DNA of 32,000 nt, taken from Xylanibacter ruminicola 23. GTDB taxonomy: Bacteria > Bacteroidota > Bacteroidia > Bacteroidales > Bacteroidaceae. Where the stretch lies: positions 2,640,001 to 2,672,000 of the forward strand of contig NC_014033.1 of NCBI RefSeq assembly GCF_000025925.1, written 5' to 3'. Under the pieces are notes generated by a model. That model was not told where the DNA came from. It saw nothing but the letters and a program-made list of their open reading frames with translations, and did no database searches. Position 1 is the first letter of the stretch, and each line of letters begins with the position of its first letter. The position numbers and the translations under genes were made by a program. Positions 4,609-30,157 of the stretch are shown one piece after another.

Positions 4609-4622
4609 ATAACATAGAACAC

Positions 4623-5186
4623 ATGGACGAGCAATTAAAGCAAATAGGAGAACGCCTTCGCGGTTTGCGCGATGTTCTCGACATTCCAGTAAGCGAGATG
4701 GCCGAGACTATCGGTATCGACTCAGAAAAGTACGAGAAGATTGAGAAAGGTGAGCTTGACATCACCATCTCAAACCTCATGAAGATAGCCCACAAGTATG
4801 GTGTATCAGCCGAGGAACTGATGTTTGCCGAGGCACCCCATATGAAGTCGTACTTTGTAGTACGTAAAGGTCAGGGCATGAGCGTAGAGCGCACCAAGGC
4901 TTACAAGTATCAGAGTCTGGTAAGTGGATTTGTAAACCACCAGGCCGATGTATTCATTGTAACTGTAGAGCCCAAGCCAGGCGCTCGCACCATTTACAAA
5001 AATACCCACCCAGGTCAGGAGTTCAACATGGTACTCGAGGGTAAGATGGAACTCTTTATCGGTGGCAAGACCATCATTCTCGACGAGGGTGACAGCATCT
5101 ATTTCGACTCATCAAAGCCCCATGGCATGCTGGCCGTAGGCGACAAACCCGTGAAGTTCCTCGCCTTTACAGTCGAAAAGAATTGA
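4623..5186 (+). CDS. XRE-family HTH transcriptional regulator with a C-terminal cupin domain
   Basis: N-terminal HTH_3-like region IGERLRGLRDVLDIPVSEMAETIGIDSEKYEKIEKG. C-terminal cupin motifs HPGQEFNMVLEGKMEL...GDSIYFDSSKPHG. Confidence 0.8.
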   Translation: MDEQLKQIGERLRGLRDVLDIPVSEMAETIGIDSEKYEKIEKGELDITISNLMKIAHKYGVSAEELMFAEAPHMKSYFVVRKGQGMSVERTKAYKYQSLVSGFVNHQADVFIVTVEPKPGARTIYKNTHPGQEFNMVLEGKMELFIGGKTIILDEGDSIYFDSSKPHGMLAVGDKPVKFLAFTVEKN

Positions 5187-9263: not shown

Positions 9264-9285
9264 TTATATATAAGGAGGGAACAAA

Positions 9286-14426: not shown

Positions 14427-15869
14427 TTATTTGATGGCAGCCGCAATGATCTCGGCCATCTTCTTGGCCCCTTTTTCGTTGGGATGAATACCATCATCTA
14501 CCACCTTATCGCCATCGTTTAGCATCAGGGCATGCAGATCGATAATCTGTAAGCCATACTGCTTAGCTACTTCCTGCTGGATGGGGATAATCTCGTCGGT
14601 AATCACCTTATCGTTGATATTCCAACTGGGCTTGAAGGCAGGGATGGGCGTACAAAGCAGGATCTTTGGACCTGCAGGCTGAGCTGCAGCCTTAGCCTTC
14701 TTCTTACCTTTCTTAGCTGGTTGGGCAAGGTCTGGGCGCAGGGCCTTAATCATCTGTTCCAAATCCTGCCTAAACTCTGAGCCATACTGCCAGTTCTCGG
14801 GCTTCGAGTCGTTGGTGCCGAGCTTAATCACAACCACATCGGGCTTAAATGCCAAGGCATCCTTCCAGGCCATCTCGTTCATATAAGGGAAATCACCCTT
14901 GTTCAACATGGTACGTGCCGAAACACCAAAGTTCTTTACCCAGTAGCCATCACCCAGGATTCCCTGCAGTTGTGCCGGATAGCCGTACTTGGCACGCATA
15001 TCAATACCAAAACCATCAGTAATGCTGTTACCGATGCAAGCCACACGGATAGCATCCTCCTTGGGGGCAGGAATCGACTTAAGCCAGTTACCTAAGTCCT
15101 GCAACAGCTGGTCGTGATACTTAAACCACGTGCCAAAGCCAAAGCCATGATCGCCCGAAGGGTAAATAAACAAGCTGCATTCATTACCGGCATTGCGCAT
15201 AGCCGAATAATACTGTATGCCATTGGTTACCACAGGCACCAAACGGTCGTCGTTAGCGCTGATGATACAAGCAGGTGGCGTGAGATGGCTGCGAACGGCA
15301 TTCTGGGTTGAGTACTGTCCTATAAGTTTAGGATCCTTATACCCCTCTTTACCCAGAAAGTTGATGCACGACCACTTATGTGATACACGCTCATCCATCG
15401 AGATTACTGGATAGAATAGTATCGAGAAGTTAGGACGCACTTCATAAGGCGACATCGTTGAGATGACCGACGACAGATGTCCACCTGCCGAGAAGCCCAT
15501 AATGCCCACATCGTTAGGATTAATATTCCAGACCTTAGCCGAGTCGCGAACGATACGGAAACCTTGCTCCACATCTCCTACTGGAATGGTACGGTCACCA
15601 TGCGGCAAACGATAGTTTACCACGAAATAAGCGATACCCTGTTTATTCAACCAATCGGAAGCCTGATAGCCCTCATGCGTATTCGAAAGCATAGAGTAGC
15701 CACCTCCAGGCACACCAACAATGGCTCTGCCTGAGGGATTCTCTGGAAGGAAACACACCATCTGAGCCTTTCCATCATCGGACAGGTTCAACGTAAACTT
15801 CTTTGCGGTCTGCGCCTGCATGGTCATAGCCAGCATCAGCAGCCCCGTCATGAATAGTTTTCTGTTCAT
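14427..15869 (-). CDS. secreted two-domain carbohydrate esterase (alpha/beta-hydrolase + SGNH/GDSL domain)
   Basis: Signal peptide. N-terminal VGVPGGGYS oxyanion motif and GFSAGGHL nucleophile elbow. C-terminal SGNH blocks ACIGNSITDG, KLGTNDS and DDGIHPNEKG. Confidence 0.75.
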   Translation of the reverse strand: MNRKLFMTGLLMLAMTMQAQTAKKFTLNLSDDGKAQMVCFLPENPSGRAIVGVPGGGYSMLSNTHEGYQASDWLNKQGIAYFVVNYRLPHGDRTIPVGDVEQGFRIVRDSAKVWNINPNDVGIMGFSAGGHLSSVISTMSPYEVRPNFSILFYPVISMDERVSHKWSCINFLGKEGYKDPKLIGQYSTQNAVRSHLTPPACIISANDDRLVPVVTNGIQYYSAMRNAGNECSLFIYPSGDHGFGFGTWFKYHDQLLQDLGNWLKSIPAPKEDAIRVACIGNSITDGFGIDMRAKYGYPAQLQGILGDGYWVKNFGVSARTMLNKGDFPYMNEMAWKDALAFKPDVVVIKLGTNDSKPENWQYGSEFRQDLEQMIKALRPDLAQPAKKGKKKAKAAAQPAGPKILLCTPIPAFKPSWNINDKVITDEIIPIQQEVAKQYGLQIIDLHALMLNDGDKVVDDGIHPNEKGAKKMAEIIAAAIK

Positions 15870-15884
15870 AGTTACAACAATTCT

Positions 15885-16862
15885 TTATTTAGTCCTATTG
15901 TTAAAAAATGCCTCCACACGATCAGCCATATTCTGCCTGATATAAGGGTAGTAGAATCTTAGTTCCATGTGATGATAGTTTCCCGGAATACCGATTACTG
16001 GCATCGGTTCATCATTCTTATAGCCACCTATCAACAGTAACTTGCTCTTCGGGTCGAGTCGTGCCGAGAGCGTATCATTCTGATGCTCCTTGTCGTAATA
16101 CACAAACGACGCGCCTACCGTATCTGTTCGCCAGTTGATGGGATTAATACAGAACAGATTACCCGCACTTACCACTGGTATTTCGCACTCTGGCGTCTTT
16201 ACCGAGTTAAAGCAAATCGACACCTTGGTATCGTTAGCCTTGCAAGCCGGGCGCAAATGTCGGCAACATGCCGTATCTTCCTTAGTAATCCTATAACCAA
16301 TAAAATAGGCAGCCACCATGCGGTCGGCCACATCATCCGGCATGCGCTTCATAATCTCCAACATGGCATGAGCTCCCTGACTGAAGCCAGCCAGTATAAA
16401 GGGGCGCCCCTGATTCAGATGTTTGATATAGTAATCCCAACTCCGAACGCAGTCCGACATGGCTAATGGCAAACGTGCAAGCGCAGTTTCGGGTGACGAC
16501 CACGACTGCATCGTCACCTGACGATAATAAGGCGAATAGTAATTCAGTTTGCCTGAATAAAACGAATCCACAGCATGCATTTCAATCCTCATCTGTCCAC
16601 GCTGACCAGCATTGTAAGTGTCGGCAAAATGGCAGGTATCACTACCTATCATATGGTCGCCTGTTTCTGTAGAGATGATATAAAACAAATCGGCCTCACC
16701 CTGGCGGTTAACTATAAACCACTGGCTGGGATCATCGTAATGCGGTGATGGGGGAATTGGACCGATAACCGACTGACTATCACTATCCCACGAACCGAAG
16801 AATAGCGAAGCGCATACGCAAGAAAGCGCAACAAAAGCCGATTTTAGTCTATTCGTACACAT
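15885..16862 (-). CDS. alpha/beta-hydrolase lipoprotein (DUF3089-like)
   Basis: GxSxG motif GFSQGAHA. The start was moved from the ORF-track Met (16913) to MCTNRLKSAFVALSCVC at 16862, because a TAnnTTTG promoter box (16883-16890, minus strand) lies inside the longer ORF and the shorter form begins with a signal/lipobox. Confidence 0.65.
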   Translation of the reverse strand: MCTNRLKSAFVALSCVCASLFFGSWDSDSQSVIGPIPPSPHYDDPSQWFIVNRQGEADLFYIISTETGDHMIGSDTCHFADTYNAGQRGQMRIEMHAVDSFYSGKLNYYSPYYRQVTMQSWSSPETALARLPLAMSDCVRSWDYYIKHLNQGRPFILAGFSQGAHAMLEIMKRMPDDVADRMVAAYFIGYRITKEDTACCRHLRPACKANDTKVSICFNSVKTPECEIPVVSAGNLFCINPINWRTDTVGASFVYYDKEHQNDTLSARLDPKSKLLLIGGYKNDEPMPVIGIPGNYHHMELRFYYPYIRQNMADRVEAFFNNRTK

Positions 16863-16882
16863 ATAATTGACTAATTTGCGTG

Positions 16883-16914
16883 CAAAAATACAAATTTCAA
16901 GCGAAGTTAGCAAA
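16883..16914 (-). promoter_or_regulatory. Bacteroidota promoter (-33 TTTG / -7 TAttTTTG) for the esterase operon
   Basis: Minus-strand TATTTTTG at 16890-16883 and TTTG at 16914-16911, with 20-nt spacing. About 21 nt upstream of the ATG at 16862. Confidence 0.6.
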
Positions 16915-16966: not shown

Positions 16967-17995
16967 ATGATTTCATTTGAATGTGACTACAACAACGGGG
17001 CTCATCCAAAAGTTTTGGAGAACCTGATTAAATACAACGATGCCAAACCAACCCCTTATGGTTTTGATGAGTTTAGCGAACGCGCCAAAGAGCGCATCCG
17101 TGTAGCATGCGGATTGCCCGATGCCCAGATATTCTTCCTCACCGGCGGCACCCAGACTAATGCCACCACCATCGACTCGATGCTGTATCAGTACGAGGGT
17201 GTGATTTGTGTTGGCAGCGGTCATATCAACGTACACGAGGCTGGTGCTGTAGAGTTCACCGAGCACAAAATCATAACCATTGCCGATAATAATGGTAAGA
17301 TGGAAGCCAAGACACTCGACAAGTATCTCGACGACTATATGCACGACGGCAACAAGGACCACGCTGTACACCCAGGATTGGTTTACATCACTTTCCCCAC
17401 CGAGTTTGGAACTCTCTACACAGCAAAGGAACTTGACGACATCTACCAGGTATGTCAGCACTACGAGATACCGCTTTATATAGATGGTGCCCGTTTGGGC
17501 TATGGACTGATGGCCGAAGAGAACGATATCACCCTGCCCTACCTGGCCCGTCACTGCGATGTTTTCTATATCGGTGGAACTAAGATTGGTGCCCTTTGCG
17601 GCGAGGCTGTGGTATTTACGCACCAGAATGCCCACAAGCATTTCTTCTCTATCCAGAAACAGCATGGTGCCGTGATTGCCAAGGGCGCCTTGATAGGCTT
17701 GCAGTTCGATGCGCTGTTTACTGACGACCTCTACTTCAAACTCTCAGAACATGCCATCAAGATGGCTATGCGCATGAAGCAGATATTCATCAAGAAAGGC
17801 TTCGAGTTCTATGTCGACTCACCCACCAACCAGCAGTTTGTAATTATGGACAACACACTGGTTGAGGCACTGAGTCAGAAGATGAAGTTCACTCATTTCG
17901 GTCAGGCCGACAAATACCATACCATCTGCCGTTTCGTAACCAGCTGGGCCACCACCGAAGAAGAATTAGACGAATTAGAGAAGATACTCGGATGA
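16967..17995 (+). CDS. threonine-aldolase / beta-eliminating-lyase family PLP enzyme
   Basis: N-terminal FECDYNNGAHPKVLENL, FLTGGTQTN, PLP-lysine region FYIGGTKIGAL. 342 aa. Confidence 0.75.
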   Translation: MISFECDYNNGAHPKVLENLIKYNDAKPTPYGFDEFSERAKERIRVACGLPDAQIFFLTGGTQTNATTIDSMLYQYEGVICVGSGHINVHEAGAVEFTEHKIITIADNNGKMEAKTLDKYLDDYMHDGNKDHAVHPGLVYITFPTEFGTLYTAKELDDIYQVCQHYEIPLYIDGARLGYGLMAEENDITLPYLARHCDVFYIGGTKIGALCGEAVVFTHQNAHKHFFSIQKQHGAVIAKGALIGLQFDALFTDDLYFKLSEHAIKMAMRMKQIFIKKGFEFYVDSPTNQQFVIMDNTLVEALSQKMKFTHFGQADKYHTICRFVTSWATTEEELDELEKILG

Positions 17996-19398
17996 AGAAC
18001 CTATACTATAAATATTACCCTACAGCCGCAATTATTCTCTGCGCCATTATCATCTGGTGTTTCTTTCAGTTCTGGTATCCCTATCACTTCTTTTTCCAAG
18101 AGCAGAACCAGATATTCCTTTGGTCGTGGGATTATATCTCCACCTATACTGATAAGTCAGGTGGATTGGCAGGTCTTGTGGGTGATTTCCTCACGCAGTT
18201 CTATTACTACCTGTTTGCAGGCTCCACAATCCTCACGGTTTGTCTGCTCATCATAGCTGGCTTGCTTTACCAGTCGCTTATCCACTTCAAGGTCAGCAAA
18301 ATTGTGACCCTTGCATTGACACTGTTTGTGATGGTGTTCGTGGCCGTATGCCATTTCAGCACCAGCTATCGCCTCTCATCTACAATCTCTATCATGGGAT
18401 GGCTGCTCTTATTATGGGGGGTATCAAGCATCCGAAAAAACGCCCTGAAGCTGTCGGTATTAGCTTGTGGCCTGCTCCCCTGTTATCTGCTATTTGGCAG
18501 TCCTGTCATCAAGCAATTGCAGATGCCAGATCTGGTTTTAGAGAAGGATTTTGCTGTCGACTGCGAATACCACTTTGGCCATTACGATAAAGTGATACAG
18601 ATGGTAGAAGGTCAGGACCGATGGACCGACCAGATGGTGTTCTTCTACAACCTGGCACAGGCACAACGCGGTAAGCTGCCCGACCACCTACTCAAGTTCA
18701 CTCCTACCCAGTTGGGAACCTTCTACAAGATTGGTCCCGAAACGCCAATGCTGATTATCCGTAACATGAACGAGCTGTATTGGGCCTTAGGCGATATGAC
18801 CTTTACCGAGCGTGCAGCCATGATGACGAACGTGTTCTCGCACAACAACCGTAACGTGCGAATGATGCAACGTTTGGCCGAGTGTAATTACGTGAGTGGT
18901 GATTCGTTAGCAGCCGAGAAATACCTGCGTATCCTCGACAAGACATTGGTATATGACCGTTGGGCCGACAATGTCCGCAAGAATGGCAAAACCATCTATC
19001 AGCAGAAGATGCAGATGGTAAATCGCCACGACACCATATCGACAACCGACAATGCCCACCTGCTCATGATGCAGTTGCTCAATGCCAATCCGAACAACAC
19101 CATAGCCTTGGATTACATTCTGTGCAGCACACTGGTATTAAAGGATATTGCCAGCTTCAAGCGCGATTACGACCGCTATTGCATCGACACCAACAACCCA
19201 CGATTAAAGACACTCTACCAGGAGGCACTTTGCATTTGGCTGGCTGGTACCGACGCACCACAACAAGAGTGGGAGAAATACATCAAGCGCGGCGATGTCT
19301 TCCAGCGTTTTCAACAGTATAACCAACAACGTGGTAATGCCAATTTCAAGGACACCTATTGGTATTACTTTGATAAGATAAAAGCACCTGAAATATGA
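17992..19398 (+). CDS. polytopic membrane protein with C-terminal helical-repeat domain, paralog 1 (short form; resembles uncharacterised family DUF6057, unverified)
   Basis: About 5 hydrophobic helices. Shared N-terminal signature FWYPYHFFFQEQNQIFLWSWDY...GGLAGLVGDFLTQFYY and C-terminal AEKYLRILDKTLVYDRWA. ATGA overlaps with both neighbours. Confidence 0.8.
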   Translation: MKNLYYKYYPTAAIILCAIIIWCFFQFWYPYHFFFQEQNQIFLWSWDYISTYTDKSGGLAGLVGDFLTQFYYYLFAGSTILTVCLLIIAGLLYQSLIHFKVSKIVTLALTLFVMVFVAVCHFSTSYRLSSTISIMGWLLLLWGVSSIRKNALKLSVLACGLLPCYLLFGSPVIKQLQMPDLVLEKDFAVDCEYHFGHYDKVIQMVEGQDRWTDQMVFFYNLAQAQRGKLPDHLLKFTPTQLGTFYKIGPETPMLIIRNMNELYWALGDMTFTERAAMMTNVFSHNNRNVRMMQRLAECNYVSGDSLAAEKYLRILDKTLVYDRWADNVRKNGKTIYQQKMQMVNRHDTISTTDNAHLLMMQLLNANPNNTIALDYILCSTLVLKDIASFKRDYDRYCIDTNNPRLKTLYQEALCIWLAGTDAPQQEWEKYIKRGDVFQRFQQYNQQRGNANFKDTYWYYFDKIKAPEI

Positions 19399-20801
19399 AA
19401 AAATTACTTAACCTACTCACTATACTGATAGTACTTACCTCTTGTACACCCACCCCTGAGAATGTACAGGAGAGCAACACTCTACCACCTATTTATCCCG
19501 ACTACTGTGATGTAACTATTCCACAGAATATAGCCCCGCTCAACTTTCTGCTGCGTGCCGATTGTGAAGCCATCGAGGTAAAGGCTAGCGACATCACCAT
19601 CAACACCCGTGGCAACGAGGCCGTATTCGACATCGACGATTGGAAGGCCCTGTTGCAACAATCTGCTGATAAGAGCATAGAAGTGAATGTCAGTGCCCTT
19701 ATCAACGGGCAGTGGACGGCCTACAGGCCCTTCACCTGGCAGGTAGTAAGCGACAAGGTGGATCCCTATCTCACCTACCGTCTCATTGAGCCCGATTACG
19801 AGATATGGAACAACGTACAGATTCAGCAACGCTGTGTAGAGAACTTCGACGTAAACGCCTTAGGACATTACGAGAAGTTGGAAAACCGCTGCATGAACTG
19901 CCACACGTTTGCCAACCAGAACCCACAGCTATCCATGATGTACGTTCGTGGTCCTGGCGGCGGTGCCATCCTGAATGAGAACGGCATACTCAGCAAGCTG
20001 AACATCCCTGGCAGTGTTTACTTCGGATTCAGTCCCACTGGCCGCTATATCACCTATTCTACCCAGAAGATTATTCCCGCTTTCCATAGCGACCCCAGCA
20101 AGCGATTAGAAGTGTACGATTCGGAGTCGAATGTATGCGTGGCCGATATGCAGGAGCATCGTATCTTTACCTCACCATTGCTTTCCGACAGTCTGAAGTT
20201 CGAGACATTCCCTACCTTCTCGCCCGATGGCAAGTACATCTACTACTGTGCGGCCGATAGTGTGAGTCTGCCTCACGACATCAAACAGTTGCAATACAGT
20301 TTGGTGCGCATCGCCTTTGACGAGAAAACGGGCACCATCGGCACTCAGGTAGATACACTCTACCATCAGCGCAGTGTATGCCATCCACGTGTCAGCCCCG
20401 ACGGTCAATACATTCTTTATACCGTAGCCGACTACGGCACCTTCCCCATCTGGCATCCAGAGGCCGATTTGCAGATGATGAACCTGCAAACGGGTAAGAT
20501 TGATACACTTAGCATCGTGAATAGTGCCAAGAGCGATACTTATCACTCTTGGAGCAGCAATAGCCGCTGGTTTGTGTTTGCCTCGAAACGCGACGACGGT
20601 CTGTATGGCAAACCCTACTTCTGCTATATTGACAAGCATGGTAAAGCCCACAAGCCTTTCTGCCTGCCACAGGCACATCCTTCGTTCTACGACAACAATC
20701 TGAAGTCGTTCAATGCGCCAGAGCTAGGTAAAGGCAAGGTGCCGTTCGATGTTGAAGATGTGGCCAAAGCAATGAAAAAAGAATCCGTGACCTTTAAATA
20801 G
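19395..20801 (+). CDS. lipoprotein with CxxCH motif and PD40/TolB-like beta-propeller repeats, paralog 1
   Basis: Lipobox LTSC, LPPIYPDYCDVTIPQNIAPLNF, CMNCH (19890-19904), PD40 repeats FSPDGKYIYY and VSPDGQYILY. Confidence 0.85.
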   Translation: MKKLLNLLTILIVLTSCTPTPENVQESNTLPPIYPDYCDVTIPQNIAPLNFLLRADCEAIEVKASDITINTRGNEAVFDIDDWKALLQQSADKSIEVNVSALINGQWTAYRPFTWQVVSDKVDPYLTYRLIEPDYEIWNNVQIQQRCVENFDVNALGHYEKLENRCMNCHTFANQNPQLSMMYVRGPGGGAILNENGILSKLNIPGSVYFGFSPTGRYITYSTQKIIPAFHSDPSKRLEVYDSESNVCVADMQEHRIFTSPLLSDSLKFETFPTFSPDGKYIYYCAADSVSLPHDIKQLQYSLVRIAFDEKTGTIGTQVDTLYHQRSVCHPRVSPDGQYILYTVADYGTFPIWHPEADLQMMNLQTGKIDTLSIVNSAKSDTYHSWSSNSRWFVFASKRDDGLYGKPYFCYIDKHGKAHKPFCLPQAHPSFYDNNLKSFNAPELGKGKVPFDVEDVAKAMKKESVTFK

Positions 20802-20817
20802 TCACGGATTCTTTTTT
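20775..20817. terminator. bidirectional intrinsic terminator shared by the convergent module operons
   Basis: A6 (20775-20780), GAATCCGTGAC (20781-20791), 9-nt loop, GTCACGGATTC (20801-20811), T6 (20812-20817). It overlaps the last codons of the + gene and the stop codon of the - gene. Confidence 0.8.
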
Positions 20818-22285
20818 ATTTCACCTTCGTTTCAACACGTTGATCGGAAGCTATTTCACGACCGGCATTGTAAGCGTCGAAAACAACTTTTGTTTTGGTA
20901 AAGTCGGGTACGTTAAACGAGAAAATACTTTCCTCGTAGTACTCTTTCGGATGTCGCTGAGGCAACAGGAATGGTTTTGAGAAGTGTCCTTTGTCATCCA
21001 CACAAGCCAGATAGAGATGACTATAAAGTCCATCGCCACGGCGACTGGTAAAGACAATCCAGTGCGAGTTTACATTCCAGTTGTGATAGCTGTCGGCCTT
21101 CTCGCTGTTTATCTCCTTCAACTCGCGCGCTTCACCCGTTTGCAAGTTCAGCAGCCACTGGTTACTCTCCTGGTGCCAGATTGAGAAGTAGCCGTAATCC
21201 ATCAGCGTAAACAGGATGTACTTGCCATCGTACGACGGACGGGGCCAAGTCAGACTCTTACCCATCGCCACCGCATTAAAGATGGTATCCACCTTCTCGC
21301 CGTATTTACCTGTAGCGGGGTCGAATGCAATCTTACACAGGTTGTACTTCTCGTCCTTATAATGCATAGGGTACTCCTGCTGCTTGCAAGTCATGTAATA
21401 CAAGGTTTTACCATCAGGCGAGAATACAGGTGAGTTCTCACTCCAATCGGGTGTCGATAGCAGCGAGTCCTTAATAATCTCATGAGTAGCGGGATTATAC
21501 ACAAATACATCGCTCGACAAGTCGAACACCTCAATACGTTCATGAGCAACCATATGGAATCCCTGACGCGTCTGGTTAGTAGAGAAAGCACAGTATTTGC
21601 CACTGGGGTGCCAGTAAGGATACACCATCGAACCACCTAACTGCTCGTTGCTGGCCTTCAGCCATTCACGCTGACCATCTATCTGGAACATGGTTGCACC
21701 ATGATCGCCACGAACATGAAACACAAATTTGGATGGATCTGTTTGGCGCGCCGAATGACAGTTCACACACATACCAGGCACCTGAGTATTCTCGATAATG
21801 GGATACTCATCGAATGTAGCCAGGTCGCGCTGATAGAGTCCCATCTTACTGAACACCTCGTAGCCTGGGGCTATACGACGATAAGTCAGTCCCCATTCAT
21901 CAAGTGCATAGGTACTTACGTTTACCGTAAAGTTGTTATACTGCTGCCACTGACCGTCCTTTCTGGTACAAACTGTAAACGTCAGTTGTCCGCCTTTGTT
22001 CTGCTGGGTCAGCTCATGCCAGTCGGCAATATCAAAGTCGGCATAATCGCCCTGCACGCGCAGCTCGCCCCCCTTACTGCCTTTTACCACCACATCCACA
22101 CAGTCGGCATCAGGACAATCAAAATTCAGGGGCGCCATCTCTGCAGGAATGGTGACACCGATATAATCAGGGTAGATATTGGGCAGTTGATCAACCTTCG
22201 ATACATTCTCAGGAGTTGAGTTACAACTGGTCATCAGCCAACACCCAACACTAATCACCCAACACCAAATAGTATTCTTCTTCAT
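20816..22285 (-). CDS. lipoprotein with CxxCH motif and PD40/TolB-like beta-propeller repeats, paralog 2
   Basis: The start is set at MKKNTIW (22285), which gives an ATGA overlap with the upstream stop; the ORF-track Met at 22309 would add 8 aa. Lipobox LMTSC, CVNCH (21755-21769), FSPDGKTLYY, SYDGKYILF. Confidence 0.85.
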   Translation of the reverse strand: MKKNTIWCWVISVGCWLMTSCNSTPENVSKVDQLPNIYPDYIGVTIPAEMAPLNFDCPDADCVDVVVKGSKGGELRVQGDYADFDIADWHELTQQNKGGQLTFTVCTRKDGQWQQYNNFTVNVSTYALDEWGLTYRRIAPGYEVFSKMGLYQRDLATFDEYPIIENTQVPGMCVNCHSARQTDPSKFVFHVRGDHGATMFQIDGQREWLKASNEQLGGSMVYPYWHPSGKYCAFSTNQTRQGFHMVAHERIEVFDLSSDVFVYNPATHEIIKDSLLSTPDWSENSPVFSPDGKTLYYMTCKQQEYPMHYKDEKYNLCKIAFDPATGKYGEKVDTIFNAVAMGKSLTWPRPSYDGKYILFTLMDYGYFSIWHQESNQWLLNLQTGEARELKEINSEKADSYHNWNVNSHWIVFTSRRGDGLYSHLYLACVDDKGHFSKPFLLPQRHPKEYYEESIFSFNVPDFTKTKVVFDAYNAGREIASDQRVETKVK

Positions 22286-23958
22286 TTTCCAACCATTAAA
22301 TAATACCAAAGTGTATTCTTGAACTTAGCCAACTCAGGGGCCTGCTGATTGGCAGAATAGATACTTGCGAACTCATTCATTTGCTGCAGCATAAACTGAC
22401 TCAAGATGCCCTGTGGCGGCTGTTGCCTCTTCTGCATAAAGGCCAAGGCAATACCCTCCTGAATATGGCGGGGATTATACTGTACTCTACTCTGGACTAC
22501 AGGCGCATACTGCATAAAACGGGCGATATCCTTATCCATCAGCGGCATCATCAGCAGATACTGTGCAGCCACCATGTTGCTGGTGTTATGCATAAACAGC
22601 AGTCCACAGATTTTATCCAGTTCCCTATCGCTGAACAAGATGTCGTCCTGCAAGCGATACTGACGCAGTGTACCATACAGTGGGTGCTCGTTAATGGCCT
22701 TCTCGTCACCCAACATAGCTAACGTACGCTGTGCCCAAGGGCGGTAGAACACGGTTTTCTCCAACATCTTCAGATATTTCTCGGCCACCTTGTACTCACC
22801 GTTTATCAGATTGGTCTCAGCCAATCGCTTCACCACACGTGCACTCTTATTATAGTTAGGAATAGCCTCCATCGCCTCGAAAGCCAGTCGCTGGGCGGTA
22901 TTCACCAATCCCAAATTAAAATAGATTTCCCCAGTCAACTGCGTCGTAGCAAAATTACGCTCAAACTTAGGCAGTAAGCCCTCCGAACCACGCTGGAAAA
23001 AGTCGAAAGCCTTATCGCCAAGCTGGTTTGTCATTGCCAGTGCCAAATTAGTGGCACTCACGCTCATCGGCAAATCAGGCGTCTTTTTCTCGGCCTTGGC
23101 GATAATATCGTTCCAATCACCTATACGCACCAGATAGTCGTACTCCATCAGTTCGTATTTCTTAGCATCAAAACCAAATTGCTGGGGTACCACAACCAAT
23201 ACAGCTAACAACAAAGCCTCACCAGTCAGCACCCATGTCTTTGGTTCAGGCAAACGCTTGGTCAGCCATCCTAACAACAGCACCACCACTGGAATTGCCA
23301 TCAGTACGTAGGGCAATGTCACTGGGATACGGTAGTAACTGATGCCTAGCATCACCCTCATCATTGGGAATGGCAGATAGTGCGCACTCAGCAACATCAA
23401 GGCCAATGCGTAAATGACAGATAGTGGCATCATCCATACAGCCACCATCAGCACCAGCGGACCTATCAGCCAATAAAGAATGGGGATCAAGATTACCACA
23501 GCCACCACCTTGGCCACTATGTTTTGTGGTGCCAGCTTTGTCCATGCAATCATCACAGCCAAGGCCATTACCAGTGCCACAGCATACGTCAGCATCACAC
23601 TCTCGTCGCCCATGGCAAACCATAGCATGGCTACTGGCATAAAGCTCAGTATGTAATGACTCTTCACCTTCATCAATCGCCACGTAAGGCGTTGTATCAG
23701 CATATACAGCACGGCTATGATGGCTGCACCTATGGCAACACCATTGTAGAATTGCACCAGGAACTCAGCCACGTATCGTGCCAAGCCACCAGGCTCCGAC
23801 AGACGATCTATAAAGTAGTCGCCATCAAACAAGAACAGTTGTAACTGCTCCTGATAGGTAAGCGCAAAGGGATAGCGGTAGCTCCAGAACAGGAATACCG
23901 ACACGCCTACCACCAGCGTTACAAGCCACGCCCACTGTTTATTGCTTAATTTCTTCAT
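22282..23958 (-). CDS. polytopic membrane protein with C-terminal helical-repeat domain, paralog 2
   Basis: The start is set at MKKLSNKQ (23958) because it aligns residue-for-residue with the paralog 3 N-terminus (FLFW at residue 22 in both). Signature YPFALTYQEQLQLFLFDGDY...GGLARYVAEFLVQFY. About 9-10 hydrophobic helices. Confidence 0.8.
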   Translation of the reverse strand: MKKLSNKQWAWLVTLVVGVSVFLFWSYRYPFALTYQEQLQLFLFDGDYFIDRLSEPGGLARYVAEFLVQFYNGVAIGAAIIAVLYMLIQRLTWRLMKVKSHYILSFMPVAMLWFAMGDESVMLTYAVALVMALAVMIAWTKLAPQNIVAKVVAVVILIPILYWLIGPLVLMVAVWMMPLSVIYALALMLLSAHYLPFPMMRVMLGISYYRIPVTLPYVLMAIPVVVLLLGWLTKRLPEPKTWVLTGEALLLAVLVVVPQQFGFDAKKYELMEYDYLVRIGDWNDIIAKAEKKTPDLPMSVSATNLALAMTNQLGDKAFDFFQRGSEGLLPKFERNFATTQLTGEIYFNLGLVNTAQRLAFEAMEAIPNYNKSARVVKRLAETNLINGEYKVAEKYLKMLEKTVFYRPWAQRTLAMLGDEKAINEHPLYGTLRQYRLQDDILFSDRELDKICGLLFMHNTSNMVAAQYLLMMPLMDKDIARFMQYAPVVQSRVQYNPRHIQEGIALAFMQKRQQPPQGILSQFMLQQMNEFASIYSANQQAPELAKFKNTLWYYLMVGK

Positions 23959-24595
23959 GTGTATCGGCATTCATCGTTACCACACGTCCATCAGGATACT
24001 TACGCTGATAGGTTAAGGGGAACATATCCTTCAGGAAATCATGCAGCACACCCTCCTTCATGTTCTTAGCCATCTGACGGGTATAGTTTTTATATACCAG
24101 ATGGAAACTGTCGGCACGCTGTGCAATGTACTTAGCCTGCACGCTGTCACCTTTCGACTGCAGCTCGGCCACATACCTGCGCATCTTCATCAGCTCGCGG
24201 TTATGCATCTCGGTACGCACCTTCCATTTCTCCAACGAGTCGTTCTGAGGAGTACCAGTAGCATGACTCACACTATCAATGATAACCTTCACATCACCGG
24301 GCTCGCCTATCACCAAGAGCGACTGAACACCCATTCGGAAACGCAAATCAACCAATATCTTATACAACTTCGACGAGTCGGTAGTAAGCTCAAACTTACC
24401 ATCCTTAATCTCCACACTATCCACCGTATTAGCATTCTTCTCACCATAGAAGGGTACCAAGAAGATGCGTTTGCCCTCAAACTTCTCGTCGGGCACTACA
24501 CCGTGAATTCTACATTCATTTGCATTCTTGGGCTGACAGCTATAAAACATTGTCATAGCTGTAGCTGCCATAAAACATAAAAGAATCTTTTTCAT
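23939..24595 (-). CDS. lipoprotein with DUF4369-like N-terminal domain and no thioredoxin domain
   Basis: Lipobox MFYSC. IHGVVPDEKFEGKRIFLVPF...DSVEIKDGKFELTTD resembles the beta-sandwich that precedes TlpA-like thioredoxins in Bacteroidota. No CxxC is present. The C-terminal half is helical. Confidence 0.65.
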   Translation of the reverse strand: MKKILLCFMAATAMTMFYSCQPKNANECRIHGVVPDEKFEGKRIFLVPFYGEKNANTVDSVEIKDGKFELTTDSSKLYKILVDLRFRMGVQSLLVIGEPGDVKVIIDSVSHATGTPQNDSLEKWKVRTEMHNRELMKMRRYVAELQSKGDSVQAKYIAQRADSFHLVYKNYTRQMAKNMKEGVLHDFLKDMFPLTYQRKYPDGRVVTMNADTHEEIKQ

Positions 24596-24597
24596 TG

Positions 24598-26085
24598 TTA
24601 TCTAATTTTTACTTGTATTCGTTGATTGTCAAAAACATGCTTGTTGATCTCGCGAGCATCCACATTAACTTTACCCTCGGTAAAATCTATGCAGTTATAC
24701 GAGTCCATCTCTTCAAGATAGTATTTACGTGGATTACGCTGAGGCAACAGGAATGGTTTTCCTGCACGTCCCTTATCATCGATAAAGGCGATATACGGCA
24801 TGCTATACACACCATTTTCTCTACGACTAGAGAAAACAAACCAGTGACTGTTCAAACTCCAATTATGGAAACTCTCAGTATCATCACTATTCGCACCTGA
24901 CAACGGATGTGTCTCGCCTGTCTGTAGGTTCATCAACCAAAGATCCGCCTCAGGATGGTTCACAGGGAAGTTACCGCAGTTGGTAACATTAAACATCAAC
25001 CACTTGCCATCGTACGATGCACGTGGATAAGTAAAGCTCTTATCCCATTCACGGGCATTCAACAACGTATCCACATGGTCGCCATAGGTGCCTGTTTTAG
25101 CATCGAACGCGATTTTACACAAACTGTATTTCACCTTATCCCATTCTGCTGGTACACGGTATGGCTTGGCTGTACAATAGAACAAGGTCTTTCCATCAGC
25201 CGAGAAAGCAGGATAGGTTTCCCAATCGTCGGTCTGCAACAGTGGGCAAAGCACTAATTCGTTAGTACGGGTATCAAGCACCAGTACATTGCTAAAGGTG
25301 TCGTATACCTCAATACGCTGTCCAGTTCCGACAAAGAAGCTCTGGTGGATAGAGTTAGTTGAGAAAGCACAATAGTCTCCATCGGGATGCCAATAAGAAT
25401 AACTGGTATTGGCCACGGTACTATCGGTTTTGGTTGTCAGATATGATTGTTTACCATCTTTGTATATCAAGGTTCCGCCATGTTCACCTCGAATCTGCAT
25501 ATTAAAGGTGTTTGGATTAGCATGGTTAGCCACATGGCAGTTCATACACTGACCAGGTAGCACACTCTCGGCCAAAATAGCCGACTCATCGAAACTATGT
25601 ATGTCACGCTGATAGATACCAATGTCGCCCCCCACCTCATAACCTGGTGCGATACGGCGATAGGTAACACCATACTCATCAAGACGATGCTTACTGACAA
25701 CCATTTTAAAGTCCTGATACTGCAGCCACTGGCCGTTCTTTTTCACACATACAGTAAACACCAGTTCGCCACCGGCGTTCTGTTCTGTCAGTTCATGCCA
25801 GTCGTCCATATTAAAATCAGCCCAGTCGCCGTTGGCATGCAGTTCACCACCCTTCGACCCTTTCACCACGACATCCATACAGTCGATATCCTCTTCTGCA
25901 AAATTAAAATCCATGGGAGCAATATTCGCAGGAATCGTTACCCCGATGTAGTCGGGATAAATAGCAGGCAACTTATTCACCAAGGTAGGGTTGGTGGGAC
26001 TTTCACTGCACGACGAGCCTGCCATTGCTAACAGCCAGCAACAAACGGCCAACAGTTGATATCTGATATTAATGCGCTTCATCAT
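24598..26085 (-). CDS. lipoprotein with CxxCH motif and PD40/TolB-like beta-propeller repeats, paralog 3
   Basis: Lipobox AGSSC, LPAIYPDYIGVTIPANIAPMDF, CMNCH (25534-25548), FSADGKTLFY, SYDGKWLMF. The start is 26085 or 26082 (MMKR/MKR), overlapping the upstream stop by 17 or 14 nt. Confidence 0.85.
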   Translation of the reverse strand: MMKRINIRYQLLAVCCWLLAMAGSSCSESPTNPTLVNKLPAIYPDYIGVTIPANIAPMDFNFAEEDIDCMDVVVKGSKGGELHANGDWADFNMDDWHELTEQNAGGELVFTVCVKKNGQWLQYQDFKMVVSKHRLDEYGVTYRRIAPGYEVGGDIGIYQRDIHSFDESAILAESVLPGQCMNCHVANHANPNTFNMQIRGEHGGTLIYKDGKQSYLTTKTDSTVANTSYSYWHPDGDYCAFSTNSIHQSFFVGTGQRIEVYDTFSNVLVLDTRTNELVLCPLLQTDDWETYPAFSADGKTLFYCTAKPYRVPAEWDKVKYSLCKIAFDAKTGTYGDHVDTLLNAREWDKSFTYPRASYDGKWLMFNVTNCGNFPVNHPEADLWLMNLQTGETHPLSGANSDDTESFHNWSLNSHWFVFSSRRENGVYSMPYIAFIDDKGRAGKPFLLPQRNPRKYYLEEMDSYNCIDFTEGKVNVDAREINKHVFDNQRIQVKIR

Positions 26086-27667
26086 TGTCTTCGTTTTTAG
26101 TTTTCTGGGCCATCATTCTTTTTACATATGCGGCATAAGGCGATCCTGGCACATTACCTTGCTTTTGAATACACATCATGGCATCCTGATAGCCGATAGG
26201 CATCTCGCGATAGCCACTGTATTTCTCAGCCATGGGCATATACTGTTGGAATCCTTGCATCTGACCTTCCAACAGCATCTGTCCCATAAAGTATTCCAGT
26301 GCCATCGTGTTCTGCGTATTATTCATAAATAGTAAACCGAACATCTTATACAGTTCCAGATGACTATACAGGAAATCGTTCTTATAACGCAACTGGCGCA
26401 GTTTGCCGTACACGGGGTGTGCATCAATGGCAGCCTCATCACCTAACAAAGCTTCGGCATTAACAGCCCATTCACGATAAAACATACTTTTTTTCAGTAA
26501 ATCAAGATGTTTCTTGGCTGTTTTGTAATGCCCATTTACAATCATGCATTCGGCTATTCGCTTGGTACAACGCCCACTCATGCTACCATCCAGAATCGAT
26601 TCCTGTGTATCAAAGAAATAACGCAAAGCCGAATTGACCATACCCAGTCGCCAAAAGGTCTCTGCCGATGGCAGCATCGAGGTTAAGTCGCGAATACGGG
26701 GCATAATGAGCGCATTCTCATCACTCTGATAAAAGTCGAACATCCTATCAGCCAACTGATGCTTTTGCGACAATGCCAGGTTGACACAAACCGAACTGAA
26801 AGCCGTCTTTACTTGATATTCTTTAGCACGCGTCACTATCTCATCCCAGCGTTCATGGCGCACCAGGTAATCCTGACGAATCAGTTCGTACATCTCTTTA
26901 TCATAGCCTTTGCTGATGCCTAAGAAACACAAAGCGATAAAGACAGCCGCTTGCACAGGTAACAGCCACTTAGCCGAAAGGCATCGACGCTGCACTACCA
27001 TCGTAAATACTGTTACCAGCGGAGTCAGCCACATTAGCGTTGGCATCATCATCGGCGTGCGATAATATTGGGCAGGCATCATGGTCATCTCTAAAGTCCA
27101 CTGTGTGAGGCAGAAACGATAAGCCAGCAACTGCAAAGCCAACAGATATAAGGGCATTGGCCAGCTCTTCCATCCGTAACGGTGCATACGCAACAGCACA
27201 TACACCCAAGCCAACGGCCCCGTCAACCAATATATAATAGGTATAAGAGCCGCCTCACACCATGCCTGCTTGCCCCATTTAACAGAATTCAGTCTGTGAG
27301 CGTCAACTGCTAATATCAGCGCCACCACATAGCCCAACTTGACACTAGGATCGCCCAACAGCCAGAGCACGAGTGCTGCAGGAATCCACCCAGTGGTACA
27401 CCCCAGAGCCACGAAGAGCAGTGAGAGTAACAGGGCCCCCAGCCACTCTATATAATAGAATTGCACGATAAACTCGCCTATCCAACTGGCAAAGCCACCT
27501 GGTACACTGAGTCTATCTACAAAATAATCACTCGTCCACAGAAACAGTTGGTACTGCTCCTGATACGACATGGCGTGCGGGTATGCTATATACCAAAACA
27601 AGAATACGCCGATGCTGATTAGCACTGACAAGGCTATAGTTCCGTATTTAGTTATCGTTTTATTCAT
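26069..27667 (-). CDS. polytopic membrane protein with C-terminal helical-repeat domain, paralog 3
   Basis: Signature FLFWYIAYPHAMSYQEQYQLFLWTSDY...GGFASWIGEFIVQFYY. C-terminal AKKHLDLLKKSMFYREWA and HPVYGKLRQLRYKND are colinear with paralog 2. Confidence 0.8.
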   Translation of the reverse strand: MNKTITKYGTIALSVLISIGVFLFWYIAYPHAMSYQEQYQLFLWTSDYFVDRLSVPGGFASWIGEFIVQFYYIEWLGALLLSLLFVALGCTTGWIPAALVLWLLGDPSVKLGYVVALILAVDAHRLNSVKWGKQAWCEAALIPIIYWLTGPLAWVYVLLRMHRYGWKSWPMPLYLLALQLLAYRFCLTQWTLEMTMMPAQYYRTPMMMPTLMWLTPLVTVFTMVVQRRCLSAKWLLPVQAAVFIALCFLGISKGYDKEMYELIRQDYLVRHERWDEIVTRAKEYQVKTAFSSVCVNLALSQKHQLADRMFDFYQSDENALIMPRIRDLTSMLPSAETFWRLGMVNSALRYFFDTQESILDGSMSGRCTKRIAECMIVNGHYKTAKKHLDLLKKSMFYREWAVNAEALLGDEAAIDAHPVYGKLRQLRYKNDFLYSHLELYKMFGLLFMNNTQNTMALEYFMGQMLLEGQMQGFQQYMPMAEKYSGYREMPIGYQDAMMCIQKQGNVPGSPYAAYVKRMMAQKTKNEDNDEAH

Positions 27668-27675
27668 AAACGCTG

Positions 27676-27706
27676 CAAAAGTACCACAAAAATCTGACTT
27701 AACAAA
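27676..27706 (-). promoter_or_regulatory. Bacteroidota promoter (-33 TTTG / -7 TActTTTG) for the five-gene module operon
   Basis: Minus-strand TACTTTTG at 27683-27676 and TTTG at 27706-27703, with 19-nt spacing. The -7 box ends 8 nt before the ATG at 27667. Confidence 0.55.
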
Positions 27707-27799: not shown

Positions 27800-30157
27800 A
27801 TGAAGAAAACATTGTATGCATCACTGGCAGCAATCATGCTTGCCATGCCAGCTAATTGTTTGGCAACCAAATTCCTTGGAGTTAAAGTTATCGACAAAGA
27901 TTATCTGATGTTGCACTTCCGCGATGGCGAGGTGCATTATCGCGACAACGGCACAGGTCCCAGCGCCTATTTAGGTCACTCGTTTGCCGAAGGCGACGAT
28001 ACCCTATTGGTATTCGGCGAGCGTTTGAAAGCAGCCCAGGCACAGAACGCCGCTTTGTGGAAGATCAGCTCGTCCGACGACAAGACCTTTGCTACAGCGC
28101 AACCCTTAGCCGTTTGGCGTAAATCCAAGCCAATGAACACCGACAATACACTGACAAGCGAGTTAGACCATTGGCTGTTTTTGCAGATGCCTAAGGCCAT
28201 GAAACAGGGCTGCACATACAAAGTTGCCATCCCCGCAGGCATAGGCTCCGACAAGACCGAGGCCTCTATCCGCTTCGACGTATGGAACAACCAATCCGAA
28301 GCCGTACACATTAATATTATAGGCTATTCGCCCTTAGAGACCATTCATGCTGCCGACCTTTACCAGTGGTTGGGCGATGGCGGACAGCGCGACTATAAGC
28401 AGCTGGAGGGCAAAGGCGTATGGCTTTACAATGTGAACACCAAGAAGAAACAGAAGGTGGGTACCGTCAAATTCTGGCAACCTGCCTCAGCAGCCGCCAA
28501 GGAGGCAGGTGGCAAAAGCCTCATCGGCACCGATGTGTGGAATATCGACTTCAGCGCCAACAAACCTGGTTGCTACCGATTGGTAGTAGAGGATGTAGGC
28601 TGTAGTATGGATTTCGAGGTAAAGAACGACATTTACTACGAGCCTTATCGCTACTCGGTTCGCGGTTATTACTATATGCGTTTGGGTGAGCCTATCAATA
28701 CCGACAAGGTCTTCCCTGCCCCTCGCCAGCCACAGTTCATTCCCGAGACCGATCCTAAGGGATTTACCGTTTATAAGACCGACTTCCACCCATGGAGCCC
28801 AGGCTGGGCAGAACTGCACACCGACGTATGGGACGAGCCACACTTCAAACAACTCAAACAGTCAATCTTCTGGCAGCACCGTCTGCCGGGTAATCCGGTG
28901 AATACCGAGGTGAAAGGCGGGCACTCCGACGCCTTCGACTGGGACCGCCACCTGGCCCACGTCAGCAACATCTACGACATGCTGTTGCCTTATATCCTCT
29001 CGGGGGGACGTTTGAACGAAGATCAGTTAGGTATCCGCGAGAGTGGTAATGGTATCCCCGACCTGATTGACGAGGCCCGCAACGAGGTAGATTTCTTCCT
29101 CTCTATCCGCGATGGCGAGGCTTACTCACAGGGTGTCACCAACCCTTGTGCCGACTGGAGCGTGATGTTCCAGGCAGGCTGCACCACCATGGCAGCCTGG
29201 GCCAATGCCGCCAACTGCGCCATCATTGCCGAGGCCTTCAGATTGAACGGCAACGACAGCCTGAGCCAATACTATACTGCCGAGGCTATCAAGGCCTTCC
29301 GCTTTGCCTCAAAACAAGACCATCAGCAGCTCGACGACCTGCAGGATGTGGGCTCCATGCAGATGCGTGGTCGTGACTTCCGTCAGATGGCAGCTGCCTT
29401 CCTGTACAACCTGACTGGCGAAGAAGAGTGGGAAAAGATTTTTGCCGAAGAAAGCATGATAAAGAGCCCTCACTCATTGGTGTTCAGCAAGGGCAAGCAC
29501 GGTTTCTTTGGGGTAGGTGTGATGCATGAGGAGAATAAGAAGTTGGTGCCTTTCTGCCAGTACTGGGCAGCAGCAGCCTATCTTACCTGTCCACAGCCCC
29601 GCCACTATGGCGAGCTTTACCAGAACCTGAAAGCCAGTATCAAAGCCCAGGCCGAGGCTTATAACTATGGTCACATGGCACAGCGCCCCAGTCGCCGTTC
29701 GGCCAACGACGACCGTTGGCAAACCTCACAGAACCTGCAATTGGTAATGCTGGCCCACTACATCGCCAACAAGGCAGAGCGCAAGCAGTTGGAGCACGCC
29801 ATGTTCACCGAAGCCAGTTGGGCTTTAGGTCGCAATCCTGGTAATATTGTTGAGATGACAGGCCTTGGTCAGCGTCACATCACCGATGTCTATACCACCG
29901 GTCGCAACGATGGTGCCCCAGGCACCCATCCTGGTCAGACACCTTTCAACGGTACCGAGACTTGGTCGCCTGGTCATAATGGTGGCGATGCCCGTGTTAT
30001 CCTGGCCTATTGCTATCCCGATTGGAACAATGGTGGTTGGCCCCGTCAGGAGTCGTACTTCAACCAGCGTTACTTCTGGGTAAACGGCGAGTTCACGCCT
30101 CGCGAAACCATGCGTGGCAAGATGGCCCTCCTGGCCTATCTCTACGCCATTCGTTAG
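27800..30157 (+). CDS. glycoside hydrolase family 9-like enzyme with an N-terminal Ig-like domain
   Basis: Signal peptide. GH9-like blocks KGGHSDAFDWDRH (compare GGWxDAGD), NGIPDLIDEARNEVDFFLSI, and C-terminal WVNGEFT (candidate catalytic Glu). The assignment is by motif memory only. Confidence 0.55.
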   Translation: MKKTLYASLAAIMLAMPANCLATKFLGVKVIDKDYLMLHFRDGEVHYRDNGTGPSAYLGHSFAEGDDTLLVFGERLKAAQAQNAALWKISSSDDKTFATAQPLAVWRKSKPMNTDNTLTSELDHWLFLQMPKAMKQGCTYKVAIPAGIGSDKTEASIRFDVWNNQSEAVHINIIGYSPLETIHAADLYQWLGDGGQRDYKQLEGKGVWLYNVNTKKKQKVGTVKFWQPASAAAKEAGGKSLIGTDVWNIDFSANKPGCYRLVVEDVGCSMDFEVKNDIYYEPYRYSVRGYYYMRLGEPINTDKVFPAPRQPQFIPETDPKGFTVYKTDFHPWSPGWAELHTDVWDEPHFKQLKQSIFWQHRLPGNPVNTEVKGGHSDAFDWDRHLAHVSNIYDMLLPYILSGGRLNEDQLGIRESGNGIPDLIDEARNEVDFFLSIRDGEAYSQGVTNPCADWSVMFQAGCTTMAAWANAANCAIIAEAFRLNGNDSLSQYYTAEAIKAFRFASKQDHQQLDDLQDVGSMQMRGRDFRQMAAAFLYNLTGEEEWEKIFAEESMIKSPHSLVFSKGKHGFFGVGVMHEENKKLVPFCQYWAAAAYLTCPQPRHYGELYQNLKASIKAQAEAYNYGHMAQRPSRRSANDDRWQTSQNLQLVMLAHYIANKAERKQLEHAMFTEASWALGRNPGNIVEMTGLGQRHITDVYTTGRNDGAPGTHPGQTPFNGTETWSPGHNGGDARVILAYCYPDWNNGGWPRQESYFNQRYFWVNGEFTPRETMRGKMALLAYLYAIR

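Follow-up and report, generated by a model that had tools for sequence, protein, structure and literature searches.

Cognate pairs of a DUF6057 membrane protein and a CxNCH propeller lipoprotein in Xylanibacter ruminicola 23, a candidate mono-haem c module of Bacteroidota

We have analysed a stretch of 32,000 nucleotides (nt) of the Xylanibacter ruminicola 23 genome (contig NC_014033.1, positions 2,640,001 to 2,672,000; hereafter the window) that carries three copies of a two-gene module, in which a gene for a polytopic membrane protein of family DUF6057 (M) is followed by a gene for a lipoprotein (L) that combines a C-x-N-C-H motif with a PD40 beta-propeller. M and L genes turned out to be joined in a fixed order across the gut and rumen Bacteroidota surveyed and to diverge together, and their conservation patterns argue for a physical, cognate M-L complex at the periplasmic face of the inner membrane. 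As to function, we favour the reading that L is a mono-haem c lipoprotein held by its membrane subunit M, with a redox or redox-sensing role, to which we assign a probability of roughly 0.35. The genes of the module, including a third gene termed X, and the codons of the CxNCH motifs are the following:

17992-19398, plus strand: M1, DUF6057 inner-membrane protein, short form, 468 amino acids (aa), pair type 1 (open reading frame (ORF); PF19529, E = 4.8e-133)
19395-20801, plus strand: L1, lipoprotein with a beta-sandwich, a CMNCH linker and a PD40 (TolB-like) propeller (ORF, Pfam, lipobox)
19890-19904, plus strand: CMNCH codons of L1
20816-22285, minus strand: L3, lipoprotein with a CVNCH linker and a PD40 propeller (ORF, Pfam, AlphaFold2 (AF2) model, lipobox)
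21755-21769, minus strand: CVNCH codons of L3
22282-23958, minus strand: M3, DUF6057 inner-membrane protein, long form, 558 aa (PF19529, E = 5.2e-171, full-length)
23939-24595, minus strand: X, DUF4369 lipoprotein, 218 aa (PF14289, E = 5.4e-10; lipobox FYSC)
24598-26085, minus strand: L2, lipoprotein with a CMNCH linker and a PD40 propeller (ORF, Pfam, lipobox)
25534-25548, minus strand: CMNCH codons of L2
26069-27667, minus strand: M2, DUF6057 inner-membrane protein, 532 aa (PF19529, E = 6.3e-121)

The six ORFs of the three pairs lie where a preliminary description of this DNA, made from its letters, had placed them. All seven proteins, X included, are identical to deposited X. ruminicola entries (among them ADE82495, ADE82241, ADE81783, ADE81782 and ADE83610). 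For M3 an alternative ATG exists at 23970, the start of the longest ORF, and the deposited entry corresponds to the 558-aa form. The lipoboxes of the three L proteins read LTSC, GSSC and MTSC, one each.

The pairing of M and L was surveyed in one genome per species, which yielded 79 loci from Prevotella, Segatella copri, Bacteroides, other Bacteroidaceae and one Prolixibacteraceae genome. An L gene lay directly downstream and on the same strand for 146 of 148 M matches; of the two others, one is a fragment scoring 33 bits and one a split gene lying at the end of a locus. The 34 L genes that lacked an M gene were all located at the edge of the fetched DNA. A reciprocal survey of metagenome contigs retrieved 182 L genes. 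Of these, 55 stood at a contig or locus edge and 126 had an M gene upstream; the single apparent exception (L154) resulted artefactually from a long frame without stops, and its M gene is present at 3505-4947. M was thus found upstream of 127/127 metagenome L genes having upstream room, and the two families adjoin wherever this can be assessed, from the M side as well as from the L side. As the preliminary description had noted, the stop codon of M overlaps the start codon of L, by 4 nt (ATGA) in M1/L1 and M3/L3 and by 17 nt in M2/L2. A start could be assigned at 77 of the surveyed M-L junctions: in 44 the two genes overlap, 35 times as ATGA, and a further 24 show a gap of 0 to 30 nt. Finally, the distance matrices of M and L correlated with r = 0.965 over 134 pairs (at most 0.03 after shuffling), and the clades of M and those of L corresponded one to one. 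M and L duplicate and diverge as a unit. The dedicated, fixed-order and tightly coupled envelope module that had been proposed from the three copies in the window is therefore borne out by adjacency in both surveys and by 1:1 co-divergence.

Some irregular loci were encountered in these surveys. Six Segatella copri loci (L052, L053, L054, L056, L060 and L074, at ~8629-9276) contain a shortened L ORF of 160-215 aa after an intact M gene, and in S. copri HDD04 (L057, 11987-12895 and 14555-15631) the M gene is split, which suggests that one pair is decayed or interrupted in some strains of this species. In addition, Prevotella-like M/L loci appeared in L042, L046, L048, L071 and L078, a set whose record names are Subdoligranulum, Paratractidigestivibacter, Acutalibacteraceae, Firmicutes CAG:103 and Lachnospiraceae; mis-binning of contigs is a likelier source of these loci than true occurrence outside Bacteroidota.

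The presence of three copies had been ascribed to local amplification. Understood as a recent gain of copies, this does not agree with the divergence of the paralogues, whose proteins share only 24-49% identity (M3/M2 35%, M3/M1 24-29%; L3/L2 49%, L3/L1 40%), or with the layout M1L1> <L3M3-(X)-L2M2, which is common to ~30 Prevotella genomes. A recent tandem amplification was likewise rejected at the DNA level, where an alignment survives only between pairs 2 and 3 (65% over ~1 kb). The 134 pairs fall into two deep clades in both M and L: type 1, comprising M1/L1-like pairs with a short M, and type 2, comprising M2,M3/L2,L3-like pairs. Of 73 loci, 57 combine both types, and since these include loci of Bacteroides and Prolixibacteraceae, the sequence comparison indicates that the multiplicity of pairs is ancestral.

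M had been tentatively recognised as DUF6057, correctly so: the three proteins score 445.5, 405.5 and 570.8 bits (M1, M2 and M3) on PF19529, whose gathering threshold is 29.8, and M3 spans profile positions 3-568 of 569. The family, catalogued in Pfam as one of unknown function, comprises ~3,243 clusters at 50% identity. The PD40 repeats attributed to L were detected by Pfam in all three proteins (PF07676, 59.5, 34.1 and 25.2 bits against a cutoff of 20.9), and homologues of L carry precomputed Tricorn_N and Tricorn_2nd propeller matches. The shared N-terminal signature of M and the LP.IYPDY..VTIP...AP and C.NCH blocks of L also proved invariant across the paralogues. The CxxCH motif reported for the propeller lipoprotein is present, although it is more exactly C-x-N-C-H and lies in a linker outside the propeller. 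Searches for a described function gave little. PDB sequence searches with M3, L3 and X singly, or with profiles built from 10, 38 and 121 sequences, retrieved nothing meaningful; NCBIfam returned sub-threshold propeller matches only and assigned no function, and no component model of PADLOC-DB, which covers anti-phage defence, matched any of the seven proteins. In the literature we found no paper on DUF6057/PF19529, in keeping with the earlier statement that no role of the pair had been described, nor any mention of the M-L pairing, the two pair types or the DUF4369 partner; searches on beta-propeller plus CXXCH lipoproteins of Bacteroidetes found nothing, and those on c-type cytochromes or nrfA of P. 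ruminicola yielded no information. In source annotations L figures as a 'TolB family protein', and a connection with cytochromes is already guessed at in some annotations ('cytochrome c-binding protein', 'cytochrome c biosynthesis protein').

The AF2 model of M3 (predicted local distance difference test (pLDDT) 78, predicted template modelling score 0.70) consists of a helical membrane domain (residues 8-261) and an all-helical domain (265-555). A third homologue search, with a 10-sequence profile and intended to broaden the alignment for structure prediction, brought back for the most part the M3-like proteins already retrieved. Charge counts over the family, read by the positive-inside rule, place the N-terminus inside, the acidic loop 1 (29-73) outside and the K/R-rich loops 2 and 4 inside. 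Type-1 proteins, such as M1 with its ~5 transmembrane (TM) helices followed by a TPR-like C-terminal domain, have five hydrophobic cores, and type 2 adds two TM helices parted by a K/R-rich loop. M would accordingly be N-in and C-out with 5 (type 1) or 7 (type 2) TM helices, the only reading that fits both types, and the TPR-like domain is probably periplasmic because type-1 M has five cores. In an alignment of 121 members, the positions conserved in at least 90% are concentrated in loop 1 (E37, Q40, F42, Y48, G57, G58, Q69, F70) and in the C-terminal domain (N304, E344, R374, R378, N461, Y467), with R210 in addition. E37 is invariant in a 70-member alignment and at least 90% conserved in the larger one; K394 reaches at least 90% among the 70 members and at least 97% among the 134 pairs. 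The loop 1 signature, YP....YQEQ.QLFL..DY...PGG......F..QFY, is acidic, aromatic and juxtamembrane. When the whole M model was submitted to Foldseek, weak TPR matches filled the list (50 matches listed; probability 0.9-1.0, E at least 0.045). Beyond DUF6057 itself, only weak TPR-type Pfam matches were found among 70 diverse M proteins, with TPR_12, TPR_2, TPR_14 and TPR_17 matching 2-4 of them (best E = 2.6e-4). 'TPR-like' is thus a fair description of the modelled C-terminal domain. The possibility that M is itself a cytochrome c synthetase (CcsBA/CcmC/CcmF) was also considered. Such enzymes are recognised by a Trp-rich WWD motif in a periplasmic loop with flanking haem-ligating His; M has no His conserved in at least 90% of members, and no Trp conserved to that degree in its membrane domain or loop 1, W282 and W408 belonging to the C-terminal domain.

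In L (residue numbers below are those of L3, and conservation refers to the 134 pairs), the AF2 model (pLDDT 73) contains a confident beta-sandwich (28-125), a linker (130-182) and a propeller (186-430). Foldseek placed TolB in the TolB/Pal complex first (2hqs_B, E = 7.6e-11), followed by propellers of S9 peptidases; there were 167 PDB matches with E of 0.001 or less, and the 50 listed were almost all propellers. The linker is modelled at a pLDDT of ~30 and holds the CVNCH motif (173-177). Exactly one CxNCH was counted in each full-length L, that is, in 169/169 genome and 153/153 metagenome sequences (322/322), and no CxxCH was present in 141 plus 121 M sequences. Invariant positions comprise the lipobox Cys and an extended N-terminal peptide (P35, P39, D40, Y41, P47, A51, P52, L53, F55), and within the linker Y135, R136, I138, P140, Y142, E143, R153, C173, N175, C176 and H177; those of the propeller are H244, R250, E252, D255, E283, H371, E373, H401 and W403. 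An invariant sequence that is nevertheless modelled at a pLDDT of ~30 would agree with a linker that acquires its fold only when a cofactor or a partner is bound. L, with its signal peptide and lipobox, also shows the sequence feature by which a c-type cytochrome is recognised, a CxxCH motif in a Sec-exported protein. Surface export of Bacteroidota lipoproteins is signalled by acidic residues after the lipobox Cys. In L this Cys is followed by T/S-P/S-T-P-E-N/D-V, and the acidic signal is absent.

Taken together, adjacency, coupling, 1:1 co-divergence, the conservation of M on its periplasmic side and the invariant, unmodelled segments of L argue for a cognate M-L complex, and the simplest reading of a CxxCH that never varies in a protein exported by Sec is a covalent haem c site. 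In the arrangement that we propose, each M-L pair would form a two-subunit complex at the periplasmic face of the inner membrane. M, anchored by its 5 or 7 TM helices with the N-terminus in the cytoplasm, would show to the periplasm the conserved loop 1 and a TPR-like solenoid of ~300 residues with the conserved polar residues N304, E344, R374, R378, K394, D439, N461 and Y467. L, Sec-exported and lipid-anchored, would dock on M through its N-terminal peptide (LP.IYPDY..VTIP...AP) and its linker. The single C-x-N-C-H would receive covalent c-type haem from the system II (CcsBA) machinery of Bacteroidales, so that one haem would be placed between the Ig-like sandwich and the TolB-like propeller, which has conserved His, Glu, Arg and Asp residues of its own (H244, R250, E252, D255, H371, E373 and H401). 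The role of the complex would be periplasmic redox chemistry or redox sensing, M could connect the haem to the membrane and possibly to the menaquinol pool, and type-1 pairs, type-2 pairs and the X lipoprotein may act as one system. Haem attachment, M-L binding and the redox role are what we infer from these features. The maturation machinery is cited here from relatives of the host: PMC10434189 reports nrfAH in Bacteroides, Porphyromonas and Prevotella intermedia, with ccsA/ccsB beside it in B. thetaiotaomicron.

Several observations weigh against a haem-bearing complex of this kind. No Pfam cytochrome or haem-binding model matches 120-residue segments around CxNCH, even at E up to 10, no conserved distal Met was identified in L, and a metal site or a redox disulfide is another possible reading of the CxxC(H). 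M itself cannot, to judge from its conservation, hold a haem or an iron-sulfur cluster, because no His or Cys is conserved either among the 134 pairs or in the 121- and 70-member alignments, and a quinol site on M is pure conjecture. Concerning topology, a type-2 M with 7 TM helices requires the helix 180-194 to be re-entrant; 8 TM helices would make the TPR-like domain cytoplasmic, yet this conflicts with type 1. M-L fusions, sought as "Rosetta stone" evidence, had to be rejected as such, since none was found among the best 150 DUF6057 representatives, all of 632 aa or less. Lastly, the neighbouring genes (amino-acid enzymes, SusC/D, glycoside hydrolases) give no pointer to respiration.

Other explanations were weighed as well. 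M could be a dedicated assembly factor of L and not its stable partner: a membrane-anchored TPR chaperone resembling CcmI or NrfG that would hold its own apo-lipoprotein for haem attachment or lipoprotein sorting, with X helping to handle the CxxCH thiols. CcmI and NrfG are substrate-specific TPR factors for c-type cytochromes, and both the probably periplasmic TPR-like domain of M and the fact that every L has its own M would suit such a role, as would the occurrence of DUF4369 on thioredoxin-type exported proteins (bioRxiv 10.64898/2026.07.15.738685). We nevertheless regard it as unlikely: the large conserved TM and loop module of M would be superfluous in a pure chaperone, a standard CxxCH normally requires no dedicated lyase, X has neither CxxC nor a thioredoxin domain, and NCBIfam and PDB profile searches revealed no sequence similarity of M to Ccm or Nrf proteins.

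Two further explanations were considered. If L were a TolB-type adaptor whose propeller binds an outer-membrane or peptidoglycan partner, and M its inner-membrane anchor, in the manner of a Tol-Pal-like tether, CxNCH would have a structural part, as a metal or disulfide site, and would not carry haem. The TolB/Pal complex is indeed the best fold match of L, the protein weakly matches TIGR02800, 'TolB family protein' figures among its source annotations, and PD40 propellers usually bind rather than catalyse. The tether becomes rather improbable when the 16-28 bits on the TolB model are set against the cutoff of 343, and when it is considered that L has a lipid anchor and another N-terminal domain than TolB and that tolQRA, pal and OmpA-family genes were not seen among the conserved neighbours; moreover, an invariant CxxCH on an exported protein, in a lineage with CcsBA, leads one to expect haem modification. 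It is more doubtful still that M is a GT-C-like glycosyltransferase acting on lipid-linked sugars, or another periplasm-facing membrane enzyme, with E37 as catalytic acid, a TPR domain as in enzymes of the TMTC/PMT type and L as acceptor-binding or regulatory subunit. The order of elements in M (TM1, a long acidic loop with two short helices, more TM helices, a TPR-like domain), the conservation of E37 in both alignments (invariant in 70, at least 90% in 121) and the SusC/D and glycoside-hydrolase genes beside some loci would agree with such an enzyme. However, M has merely 5-7 TM helices, no GT-C enzyme appeared among the 50 Foldseek matches listed for the whole chain, a list filled by TPR matches, the 121-member profile found no GT-C chain in the PDB, 0/70 members matched a GT-C Pfam family at E of 1 or less, and the invariant CxNCH would be left unexplained.

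We compared the module with the known systems that it resembles most. Like L, TolB is a periplasmic PD40 propeller that works with a membrane-anchored partner; TolB proper is soluble and belongs to a tolQRAB-pal operon. L proteins reach only 28.1, 22.2 and 16.3 bits on TIGR02800 (cutoff 343), are lipid-anchored with a beta-sandwich N-terminal domain and a CxNCH linker, and have as partner a polytopic DUF6057 protein instead of TolA/TolQ/TolR, with no pal gene nearby. The likeness to CcmI/CycH and NrfG, a periplasm-facing TPR-type domain dedicated to a CxxCH (or CxxCK) protein, is functional only; no sequence similarity of M was detected, CcmI lacks the 5-7 TM helices and the conserved loop module, there are no adjacent CcmF/H or NrfE/F-type lyase genes at M-L loci, and these loci have one M per L in several paralogous pairs. 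Cytochrome cd1 nitrite reductase and quinohaemoprotein dehydrogenases also unite a single CxxCH unit with a beta-propeller bearing conserved polar residues. Their CxxCH is part of a class I cytochrome c domain and their propeller is 8-bladed and carries d1 haem or pyrroloquinoline quinone, whereas L has a linker of ~50 residues without a Pfam cytochrome match and a PD40 propeller, and no cofactor-synthesis genes occur near M-L. PorE of type IX secretion is, in turn, a Bacteroidota envelope lipoprotein with TPR and a PD40-type propeller; it has TPR, propeller, CRD and OmpA_C in one chain and no CxxCH, while here the TPR-like module resides on the separate, polytopic M, and L1 scores 23.5 bits on NF052230, over the propeller only, against a cutoff of 600. 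None of the known systems compared here accommodates the M-L module, and we rate it as outside the known kinds. Its parts (TPR-like domain, PD40 propeller, CxxCH motif) are ordinary, however, and the function given for it here is a proposed one.

The preliminary description had counted three pairs within 9.7 kb and considered the system two-component. The pairs are indeed there, but this count overlooked X, a seventh gene inside the same segment, whose homologues recur as a third gene: 42 of the 79 loci have one, in each case immediately before an M gene and on the same strand. Examples outside Prevotella are those of Bacteroides (L070, 6310-6957; L075, 3036-3683), Prolixibacteraceae (L079, 6227-6946) and a Bacteroidaceae metagenome contig (L080, 6270-6902). 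X therefore appears to be a third component of the module. Apart from its lipobox FYSC and its DUF4369 domain, X has a C-terminal half of ~100 residues without a family match, and neither its sequence nor Pfam revealed a CxxC motif or a thioredoxin domain. According to bioRxiv 10.64898/2026.07.15.738685, DUF4369 otherwise occurs on thioredoxin-type proteins of Bacteroidota that are exported or tethered to the membrane.

On a wider view, DUF6057 proteins, CxNCH lipoproteins and DUF4369 lipoproteins might together represent unrecognised membrane-linked mono-haem c complexes of gut and rumen Bacteroidota. We put this forward only tentatively, as a possible new periplasmic module for redox chemistry, electron transfer or redox sensing in which both ancient pair types cooperate; its bearers would be anaerobes to which hardly any c-type cytochromes are ascribed. 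In the human gut and the rumen, Prevotella, Segatella copri and Bacteroides rank with the most abundant bacteria. If L carries covalent haem, c-type haem lipoproteins would exist in these fermentative anaerobes beyond NrfAH, with a bearing on haem handling, many of them being haem auxotrophs, on oxygen and nitrogen oxide stress and on membrane electron flow. In any case, the strict 1:1 co-divergence of M and L in two ancient types offers a natural system for partner specificity, and the module is testable in genetically tractable strains of Bacteroides or S. copri.

With regard to transcription, the genes of the window read as two convergent operons, aldolase-M1-L1 and M2-L2-X-M3-L3, because TAnnTTTG, the Bacteroidota-type -7 promoter motif, stands only upstream of the aldolase gene and of M2. 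The additional features concerned are:

16967-17995, plus strand: threonine-aldolase-like pyridoxal phosphate (PLP) enzyme gene, context and not core (PF01212, E = 1.3e-20)
16934: TAnnTTTG upstream of the aldolase gene
27676-27683, minus strand: TAnnTTTG, 16 nt upstream of the M2 start

The motif, whose background rate is 0.33 per kb per strand, was found within 150 nt upstream for these two genes and is absent before the six internal genes. The aldolase gene is joined to M1 by an ATGA overlap, and the five minus-strand genes, of which M2 is the first, are at most 2 nt apart or overlap. L1 and L3 converge with their ends 14 nt apart (20802-20815, TAAATAGTCACGGATTCTTTTTTATTTCA), a gap with hardly space for a terminator per operon.

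The slot directly upstream of type-1 M genes (in L032, 5928-6950) is occupied by an aldolase-like PLP enzyme in 19 loci and, in 30 other Prevotellaceae loci, by an FkbO/Hyg5-chorismatase-like plus RidA protein, and the two kinds of genes never occur together at one locus. A chorismatase-like homologue (E = 3e-12) is also located 3 nt downstream of the last L gene of the Prolixibacteraceae locus (L079, 13536-14777). This alternation may hint at a small-molecule link. A 398-aa gene after the last L gene in L083 was tried as a further chorismatase homologue and rejected as unrelated; the same applied to a conserved 480-aa neighbour supposedly common to L080 and L070, the two proteins being unrelated.

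In L079 (217-5405) and in L080 and L081 (1-4612), X-M-L-M-L is immediately preceded on its own strand by SusC/SusD genes, the SusC-like protein of L079 being TonB-dependent with an STN domain. They occupy this position in two distant lineages, are rare elsewhere, and could be there by chance, SusC/D genes being common. SusC/D was rejected as an obligatory partner, as it is found in only ~6 loci.

Within the window, a GH9 glycoside hydrolase gene (27800-30157, plus strand) is divergent from M2 across a 132-bp spacer; GH9 was not among the recurrent neighbour clusters of the 79 loci. Upstream of the aldolase gene, the minus strand (14427-16913) encodes a GDSL/alpha-beta-hydrolase esterase and a DUF3089 protein, and genes for these proteins stand beside M1 in 6 and ~13 of the 79 loci, respectively. 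The segment 77-12332 (plus strand) holds a run of genes for the synthesis of arginine and proline (argininosuccinate synthase, semialdehyde dehydrogenase, class III aminotransferase, pyrroline-5-carboxylate reductase, amino-acid kinase, aldehyde dehydrogenase and a protein like ornithine carbamoyltransferase (OTCase)), into which a gene for a 694-aa SpoIIE-type phosphatase (9286-11370) breaks. The OTCase-like and aldehyde-dehydrogenase genes of this run are syntenic with the M1/L1 pair across many Prevotellaceae.

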